This document shows positions 63,561 through 64,000 of a stretch of DNA of 64,000 nucleotides, piece after piece (position 1 is the stretch's first letter; each line of letters begins with the position of its first letter). Origin of the DNA: Escherichia coli (GTDB lineage: Bacteria; Pseudomonadota; Gammaproteobacteria; Enterobacterales; Enterobacteriaceae); NCBI RefSeq assembly GCF_016026235.1, contig NZ_CP065614.1; one strand, 5' to 3'. The position numbers and the translations under genes are program-made. The notes beneath the pieces are model-generated. The model saw only the letters and a program-made list of their open reading frames with translations, did no database searches and was not told the origin of the DNA.

Positions 63561-64000
63561 GAAATTGCAGCATAAGTTATCCATGCTCTGAGGTGGGTGG
63601 AGGTGGGCCCTCCGGTCAGGGTTTACAGGAGCACTGACCAAACGACCCGGTGCTGCTTCATTCTAAGGAATGAGGTGGTGAGCGACTCGGGAAAAGGCAG
63701 AGATCTACTGTCACGTGGGGTTCGGGAAGCTGAACGAAAGTAAACTGTCCGATGAAGCATCGAAATCTTAGATGATGTCAAAATGGGGCCGTACAGCCGT
63801 CCCCTGATAAGCGCAGAAGACACCTGCTTACTGACTGCGCGGCATCCGGTGTGAAGGCAGCAGGATCCCGGGCCAGACCATCTCAGGGAACGTGAGAACC
63901 TGTTTCCGGCACGTATCGGGAAACAGGGGCGGACCCATTCGTAGTAGTGATGAAAGATCTGTAATGGGTCTGGAGCGAAGGGATGGGGATCACATTCATT
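63561..64000. other. Unassigned ORF-free, hairpin-rich sequence inserted in tnpC (continues past the window end)
   Basis: No plus-strand ORF of 60 aa or more. Perfect 9-bp hairpin CCTGTTTCC / GGAAACAGG at 63899-63927. Confidence 0.4.

Follow-up and report, generated by a model that had tools for sequence, protein, structure and literature searches.

The 3′ end of the window (the whole stretch of DNA that was analysed, 64,000 nt) consists of insertion sequence (IS) debris next to a virulence gene. The genes and features that frame the region of interest are as follows.

About 2900–3427, minus strand: a second, diverged IS66-family tnpC.
13465–13581, 24384–24500, 46879–46995 and 62418–62534, plus strand: ALIL frameshift-stimulating pseudoknots (RF01497, ~120 bits) of four IS3-family copies.
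60361–62085, plus strand: a 574-aa leucine-rich-repeat ORF.
62137–63350: ORFs of the last of these IS3-family copies, which ends at about 63392.
63393–63560, plus strand: 56 codons from the interior of an IS66-family (IS679-like) tnpC, 95.8% identical in nucleotides to the tnpC of E. coli 536 and 54% identical in amino acids to the diverged copy listed above.
63561–64000: 440 nt up to the window edge, described below.

The leucine-rich-repeat ORF is the gene annotated as the type III secretion system (T3SS) effector E3 ligase ipaH4.5 in the locus retrieved from plasmid pCFSAN029787_01 (L001, 2805–4529), where ipaH7.8 lies upstream; given this correspondence, the window derives from a Shigella/enteroinvasive E. 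coli (EIEC) invasion plasmid (pINV). The final 1,000 nt of the window are identical to this plasmid, and a 4-nt coordinate offset between the two reflects a small indel inside the IS3-family element.

The tnpC fragment is cut on its left by the end of the IS3-family copy. Its frame (63393–63560) reads VAELLEPLYDILRQYVLMPGKVHADDIPVPVQEPGSGKTRTARLWVYVRDDRNAGS, followed by EIAA and a stop codon. We compared it with two TnpC references—the diverged window copy (about 2900–3427, minus strand) and the host tnpC of a full-length intron in E. coli 536. Nucleotide identity to the latter was 95.8% (window 63395–63559 against 5276–5440 of the retrieved 536 locus, L002), and amino acid identity between the fragment and window 3260–3427 (minus strand) was 54%. 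Similarity to both stops at GCCGGTTC(G), from where the references run on from ...VRDDRNAGS with (Q/P)(M/E)PPAVWFAYSPD; the preliminary description of this DNA had placed the end of TnpC similarity exactly here, after ...NAGS, and both references confirm it. Its statement that the following 440 nt contain no plus-strand ORF of 60 aa or more also holds, the longest stop-free stretches in the three frames being 55, 55 and 39 aa.

Identity of the element and its full-length copies

Positions 63562–64000 (plus strand) correspond to positions 37–475 of the 1,824-nt group II intron E.c.I3 (window coordinate = intron position + 63525), covering most of domain I, domains II and III in full and the beginning of domain IV, in sense orientation within tnpC. 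The preliminary description had proposed that the 5′ domains of a group II intron had homed into an IS here, to be checked in the sequence beyond 64000 and with covariance models, and both checks bear this out. In an Rfam scan of the last 2 kb, RF01999 (group-II-D1D4-2; gathering score, 36) matched 63599–63715 over the full model (1–118; 91.9 bits, E = 7e-19). Past the window edge, the identical plasmid encodes an annotated ltrA (group II intron reverse transcriptase (RT)/maturase) followed by domains V/VI (RF00029 at L001 7713–7790, outside the window; 57.1 bits against a gathering score of 40), and immediately past domain VI the tnpC frame resumes with the C-terminal 60 codons of an IS66-family tnpC. 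BLAST searches with the 440 nt matched over 100 plasmids of Shigella and enteroinvasive E. coli at 99–100% identity; other E. coli plasmids and chromosomes matched at 98–100%, with the latter alignments beginning at query base 2. Considering the near-identity to reference copies of E.c.I3 and the location in an IS679/IS66-family tnpC, window 63562–64000 is almost certainly the 5′ ribozyme portion of this mobile group II intron in an IS66-family tnpC remnant, and none of the results conflicts with this identification.

The intact element was found in E. coli 536 (L002) and E. coli RMDEC465 (chromosomal locus L003), where it is 1,824 nt long and starts 36 nt further upstream than the window copy, beginning GUGUGUCACGAAGG... 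directly after ...GGCCGGAAAAACUGGCUCU. The 536 copy, at 5965–7788 of the retrieved locus, has the coordinates in NC_008253 that are published for E.c.I3-2b (Leclercq & Cordaux 2012, PLoS One 7:e52268, PMC3522654), and is 98.2% identical to the window across the common 439 nt. Both full-length copies, as well as nine of nine relatives, have a GUGUG 5′ terminus. The insertion site lies inside the conserved ...GRKNWL/FAGS codons of tnpC (slash, point of insertion), and in-silico removal of the intron joins ...AAC UGG CUC U to UC GCG GGU UCC..., giving one TnpC frame through GRKNWLFAGSDS.

RMDEC465 carries the complete intron on two replicons. On both its pINV (L087) and its chromosome (L003), E.c.I3 has a complete 5′ end and is 100% identical to the window over 439 nt; the strain has four matching places on the plasmid and one on the chromosome, and one of the copies lies within an IS66 element whose tnpB is present and whose tnpC is otherwise full length. 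These several places suggest that the intron variant identical to the window may have been active recently.

In the full-length copies (L002 and L003), domain IV encodes a 410-aa protein with RVT_1 (141 bits) and GIIM (54 bits) domains and a YADD motif, which scores 393.9 bits on TIGR04416 (the group II RT/maturase equivalog; cut-off, 300); the domain search detected no endonuclease/HNH domain, and models for retron and defence RTs scored far under their cut-offs. In pCFSAN029787_01 (EIEC) and in S. flexneri pWR100 and 981p1, a C5 run in the RT ORF has become C6 and the frame is shifted after codon 27 (L001 ~6552–6557, at least 57 nt past the window edge), removing the RT N-terminus in three of the four pINV copies examined. 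The fourth, in S. dysenteriae 1617 (pSLG231), keeps C5 and the full 410-aa ORF, yet has the same 5′ deletion as the others, so the deletion is older than the frameshift. RefSeq annotation treats these genes differently: the intact 410-aa RT (L002 6566–7708; L003 4066–5208) is flagged as 'incomplete, missing N-terminus', a 375-aa 'ltrA' is called intact on the matching plasmids though the RT is frameshifted, and the intron RNA is unannotated.

The same data bear on two other readings put forward in the preliminary description, a retron-like RNA gene and an IS with a long untranslated leader. What speaks for either of them is no more than that the 440 nt lack ORFs and contain hairpins. Against both stands the downstream ORF, to which the best retron RT model gives 68 bits, well short of its cut-off of 235, and the group II equivalog 394 bits; the Rfam hits all belong to ALIL and group II intron families, with no retron RNA among them; neither a transposase gene nor terminal repeats follow the region, where the RT is the sole downstream ORF; and the interrupted tnpC resumes after domain VI. 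We reject a retron or an IS leader at this position as scarcely credible.

On the minus strand of the region, which had been set aside as noise, one frame has no stop for 125 aa and continues beyond the window edge; in the identical plasmid it is a 139-aa ORF with a TTG start. It matches no Pfam family and is disrupted in related introns, in agreement with that judgement. RefSeq annotates an antisense 112-aa 'hypothetical protein' (WP_227804374.1; L001 6323–6661, minus strand; window 63883 onward) with a marginal match to CXXCH (22 bits); called within the ribozyme/RT region, it is probably spurious, and relatives do not conserve its frame. Antisense ORFs of 139 and 131 aa were considered as genes and rejected, given that one has no Pfam family, the other has the marginal CXXCH match (22 bits) and neither frame is conserved.

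The upstream junction and the homing site

The right edge of the tnpC fragment is defined by alignment with E. coli 536.

63560–63562, plus strand: deletion junction, between the end of tnpC (63559/63560) and the first retained intron base (position 37, at 63562).

In the same alignment, the retained piece of tnpC maps 523 nt upstream of the intron homing site in the same gene, so that ~523 nt of tnpC and intron nucleotides 1–36 (~560 nt in total) are missing at the junction; by strict identity the intron has lost 36 bases, and leaving G63561 out of the intron makes it 37. Microhomology amounts to 1–2 nt at most, and no IS end lies at the breakpoint. The scar, ...gccggttcgg/AAATTGC, is common to the pINV plasmids of S. 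flexneri 2a and 5a, S. dysenteriae 1617 and EIEC, and a junction-spanning probe was at least 80% covered in 125 plasmid records. The 63560/63562 junction is a deletion scar and not the insertion site of the intron. Of the precise interruption point in the preliminary description, the sharp end of tnpC similarity therefore stands, and its reading as the place of insertion does not, 63560/63561 being a deletion breakpoint. The same description had counted the lack of GUGYG at the junction against an intron. The motif is indeed absent from the window copy, but this is no objection, because the junction is a deletion scar and the true 5′ end (GUGUG) is among the deleted nucleotides; the locus neatly illustrates that the apparent junction of a group II intron need not show GUGYG.

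Two routes could lead to such a scar. In the simpler one, a single deletion of ~560 nt after insertion would have joined tnpC at mid-gene (codon ...NAGS) to nucleotide 37 of the intron. Alternatively, the truncation may have arisen during retrohoming, with reverse transcription stopping 36 nt short and illegitimate repair deleting part of tnpC. Abortive cDNA synthesis can yield 5′-truncated copies of retroelements, and an RT with no endonuclease domain, junction microhomology of 1–2 nt at most and the lack of an IS end at the breakpoint all accord with this route. However, the 523 nt missing from the 5′ exon would need a separate event, whereas one later deletion explains both losses more simply; moreover, all pINV copies share one junction, which leaves a single event to examine, and both routes give the same product. 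We consider truncation during retrohoming unlikely, and favour the later deletion.

The position of the intact intron is constant among relatives. Introns of Budvicia, Pseudomonas spp. and a Syntrophaceae metagenome-assembled genome (MAG), with RTs 67–96% identical, are all located at ...AACTGG(C/T)TNT/GTGTG, and in-silico splicing restores an IS66-family TnpC through GRKNWLF(A/F)GS in E. coli, Pseudomonas and the Syntrophaceae MAG, and did so in all seven of these relatives that were checked. One relative (L012) carries an internally deleted intron copy of 1,664 nt. On the basis of these sequence comparisons, the E.c.I3 lineage has kept one homing site, the GRKNWL/F codons of IS66-family transposases, across bacteria as distant as Enterobacterales, Pseudomonas and the Syntrophaceae MAG, which makes it an intron specialized for a conserved coding motif in a single IS family.

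Architecture of the retained ribozyme

We assigned the parts of the ribozyme using an alignment of the first ~460 nt of relatives retrieved through the RT protein (Budvicia, Acerihabitans, six Pseudomonas and the Syntrophaceae MAG; RT identity, 67–96%) together with two E.c.I3 copies. The features retained in the window are listed below.

63562–63895, plus strand: retained part of domain I.
63599–63715, plus strand: domain I sub-helices, group-II-D1D4-2 (RF01999).
63785–63804, plus strand: domain I hairpin with a 12-nt loop that contains exon-binding site 1 (EBS1); its stem has compensatory changes (helix 15).
63793–63799, plus strand: EBS1, ACAGCCG, which at the intact homing site pairs with UGGCUNU, the final 7 nt of the 5′ exon.
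63891–63895, plus strand: 3′ strand of the domain I closing helix, CGUGA; its 5′ partner UCACG (intron nucleotides 6–10) is deleted.
63899–63927, plus strand: domain II hairpin, CCTGTTTCC-(11 nt)-GGAAACAGG (helix 17), between domain I and J2/3 by fold and alignment.
63928–63934, plus strand: putative J2/3 linker, GGCGGAC, from its position between domains II and III.
63935–63986, plus strand: domain III, with basal helix CCAUUC/GGGAUGG around conserved internal loops (helices 18–20).
63987–64000, plus strand: first part of domain IV; the expected start of the RT/maturase ORF (intron nucleotide 512) lies 37 nt beyond the window edge.

The consensus structure was derived from this alignment and corrected for the domain I closing helix, and pairs were counted on the same alignment from which it came. 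Across intron nucleotides 1–461 of the 11 introns, 98.3% of cells were paired, compared with 37–44% when the 3′ partners were slid by 1–3 columns, and pairs with both sides changed numbered 43 in the structure and 3–10 in the slid controls. The perfect 9-bp hairpin that had been noticed at 63899–63927 is exactly domain II and exceeds chance—five of its nine pairs have changes on both sides, 99% of cells are paired across the 11 introns, and it encloses a conserved 11-nt loop (GGCACGUAUCG). The J2/3 linker is nearly invariant (six of seven columns, 410–416; column 411 is G or A), and helix 18 of domain III shows compensatory changes in four of seven pairs. A single-sequence fold had instead proposed GACCCAUU/AAUGGGUC as domain III; this helix is poorly conserved, and covariation backs CCAUUC/GGGAUGG. 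The closing helix of domain I (helix 1) is 100% paired in the full-length relatives. RNAalifold had paired GUGUGUC with J2/3, and positions 55–60 with 372–378; we replaced both pairings with the closing helix 6–10/372–376 because the latter has a U-A to A-U compensatory change. Outside the window, the stems of domains V and VI also show compensatory changes among relatives, and domain VI has an unpaired A 7 nt from the 3′ end, in ...GGCUG-A-CUCGAC.

Pairing between EBS1 and the corresponding intron-binding site of the exon (IBS1) is found at 6–7 of the 7 positions in all ten relatives with a known 5′ exon. Exon position −2 pairs with EBS1 in five of the ten (G:C in 536, U:G in Budvicia and two Pseudomonas, and U:A in the Syntrophaceae MAG) and is mismatched in the other five. 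Two earlier candidates for EBS1, both taken from exon–intron complementarity, were rejected: GGGCCAG (63870–63876) lies within the compensated long-range helix 10 and extends slightly beyond its 3′ end, and GGGGCCG (63785–63791) forms the 5′ strand of the stem of helix 15. No EBS2–IBS2 pairing was found in a scan for stretches of 5–6 nt that could pair, in most relatives, with exon windows whose last position is −8 to −14.

Origin of the remnant and comparison with known introns

On the basis of general group II intron biology, the intact E.c.I3 would be co-transcribed with the mRNA of the IS66-family (IS679-like) tnpC, fold into six domains and splice out with the help of its own RT/maturase, restoring the ...GRKNWL/FAGSDS... 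frame. The excised RNA–protein particle would then reverse-splice into the same tnpC sequence of intron-less IS copies, recognizing the site partly through pairing of the EBS1 loop with the last seven exon bases, and the RT would copy the reverse-spliced intron into DNA. The window copy, by the same reasoning, should be dead, able neither to splice nor to move, because the deletion took the 5′ splice site with its GUGUG, as well as one half of the first hairpin and the 5′ side of the domain I closing helix. It would since have been carried passively on the Shigella/EIEC invasion plasmid, among nested IS debris adjoining ipaH genes. Some pINV copies are shorter still, those of S. sonnei starting at fragment position 55 and that of one S. 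flexneri plasmid at 507, which, as far as their sequences go, indicates that erosion of the remnant may be continuing.

That the host has put the remnant to use, by keeping the RT gene (for example, as a domesticated RT) or a structured RNA on pINV, is highly improbable. The fragment occurs at 99% identity or more in over 140 Shigella/EIEC plasmids, and S. dysenteriae 1617 has an intact 410-aa ORF, both of which count in its favour; but pINV copies are near-identical overall, so this conservation is uninformative on selection, and the frameshift that removes the RT N-terminus in three of four pINV copies examined, the further truncation of the S. sonnei copies and the nested IS fragments around the locus all speak against retention for a function. 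It is likewise very unlikely that the remnant is anything but inert, with the RT (intact in S. dysenteriae 1617, mostly intact elsewhere) or the ribozyme domains co-opted on pINV, be it through an RT that acts in trans on other E.c.I3 copies or through a domesticated RT.

For a remnant carried passively, the significance hardly extends beyond annotation, in which the region should be labelled as a 5′-truncated E.c.I3 group II intron in an IS679-like tnpC remnant. The case shows intron remnants persisting on an IS-ridden Shigella invasion plasmid, and the common junction and the later frameshift could serve as markers of pINV lineages.

RmInt1 of Sinorhizobium meliloti, the best-studied class D intron, has no endonuclease domain and homes into an IS element. 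E.c.I3 resembles it in having RT and maturase domains only and in homing into an insertion sequence; rhizobial relatives of its RT are 44–49% identical, and across 65 nt its domains V/VI share 86% identity with an S. meliloti plasmid locus annotated as ltrA. Going by their descriptions, the two are different intron species with different targets, that of E.c.I3 being the 'NWLF' codons of IS66-family tnpC. The 410-aa RT, with RVT_1 and GIIM only and no HNH domain, is consistent with the bacterial class D label that E.c.I3 bears in the literature (PMC3522654).

E.c.I3 specifically targets IS679 (Leclercq & Cordaux 2012). The full-length copy in pathogenicity island PAI I of E. coli 536, listed as E.c.I3-2b (NC_008253, 4007952–4009775; PMC3522654), shares its host gene, orientation and 3′ junction with the window copy. 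It differs in having GUGUG and nucleotides 1–36, all of domain I, a 5′ exon that runs without a break to ...AACUGGCUCU and the 410-aa RT ORF, whereas the window copy lacks the 5′ end and belongs to a plasmid lineage in which the RT is frameshifted.

The closest counterpart is E.c.I3-tr2, a class D fragment of 1,789 bp with 98% similarity to E.c.I3-1 that 'lacks 37 bp and 900 bp of the host IS679 in 5′' (PMC3522654, Table S2) and is recorded on plasmids of five Shigella strains (S. flexneri 301, S. boydii, S. sonnei and S. dysenteriae; for example, NC_004851, 30084–31910; PMC3522654, Tables S2 and S3). The window copy is the same element, of ~1,789–1,790 bp and without the first 36–37 nt and part of the IS679 tnpC, here on an EIEC-type pINV with an identical junction; of this fragment, just the initial 439 nt fall inside the window. 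The published loss of IS679 is 900 bp, compared with the 523 nt that we measured between the breakpoints, and this difference, like that between 36 and 37 nt of intron, is probably a matter of counting conventions. The fragment is the known and already catalogued E.c.I3-tr2, an inactive remnant of a group II intron that in other E. coli copies retains its complete 5′ end.
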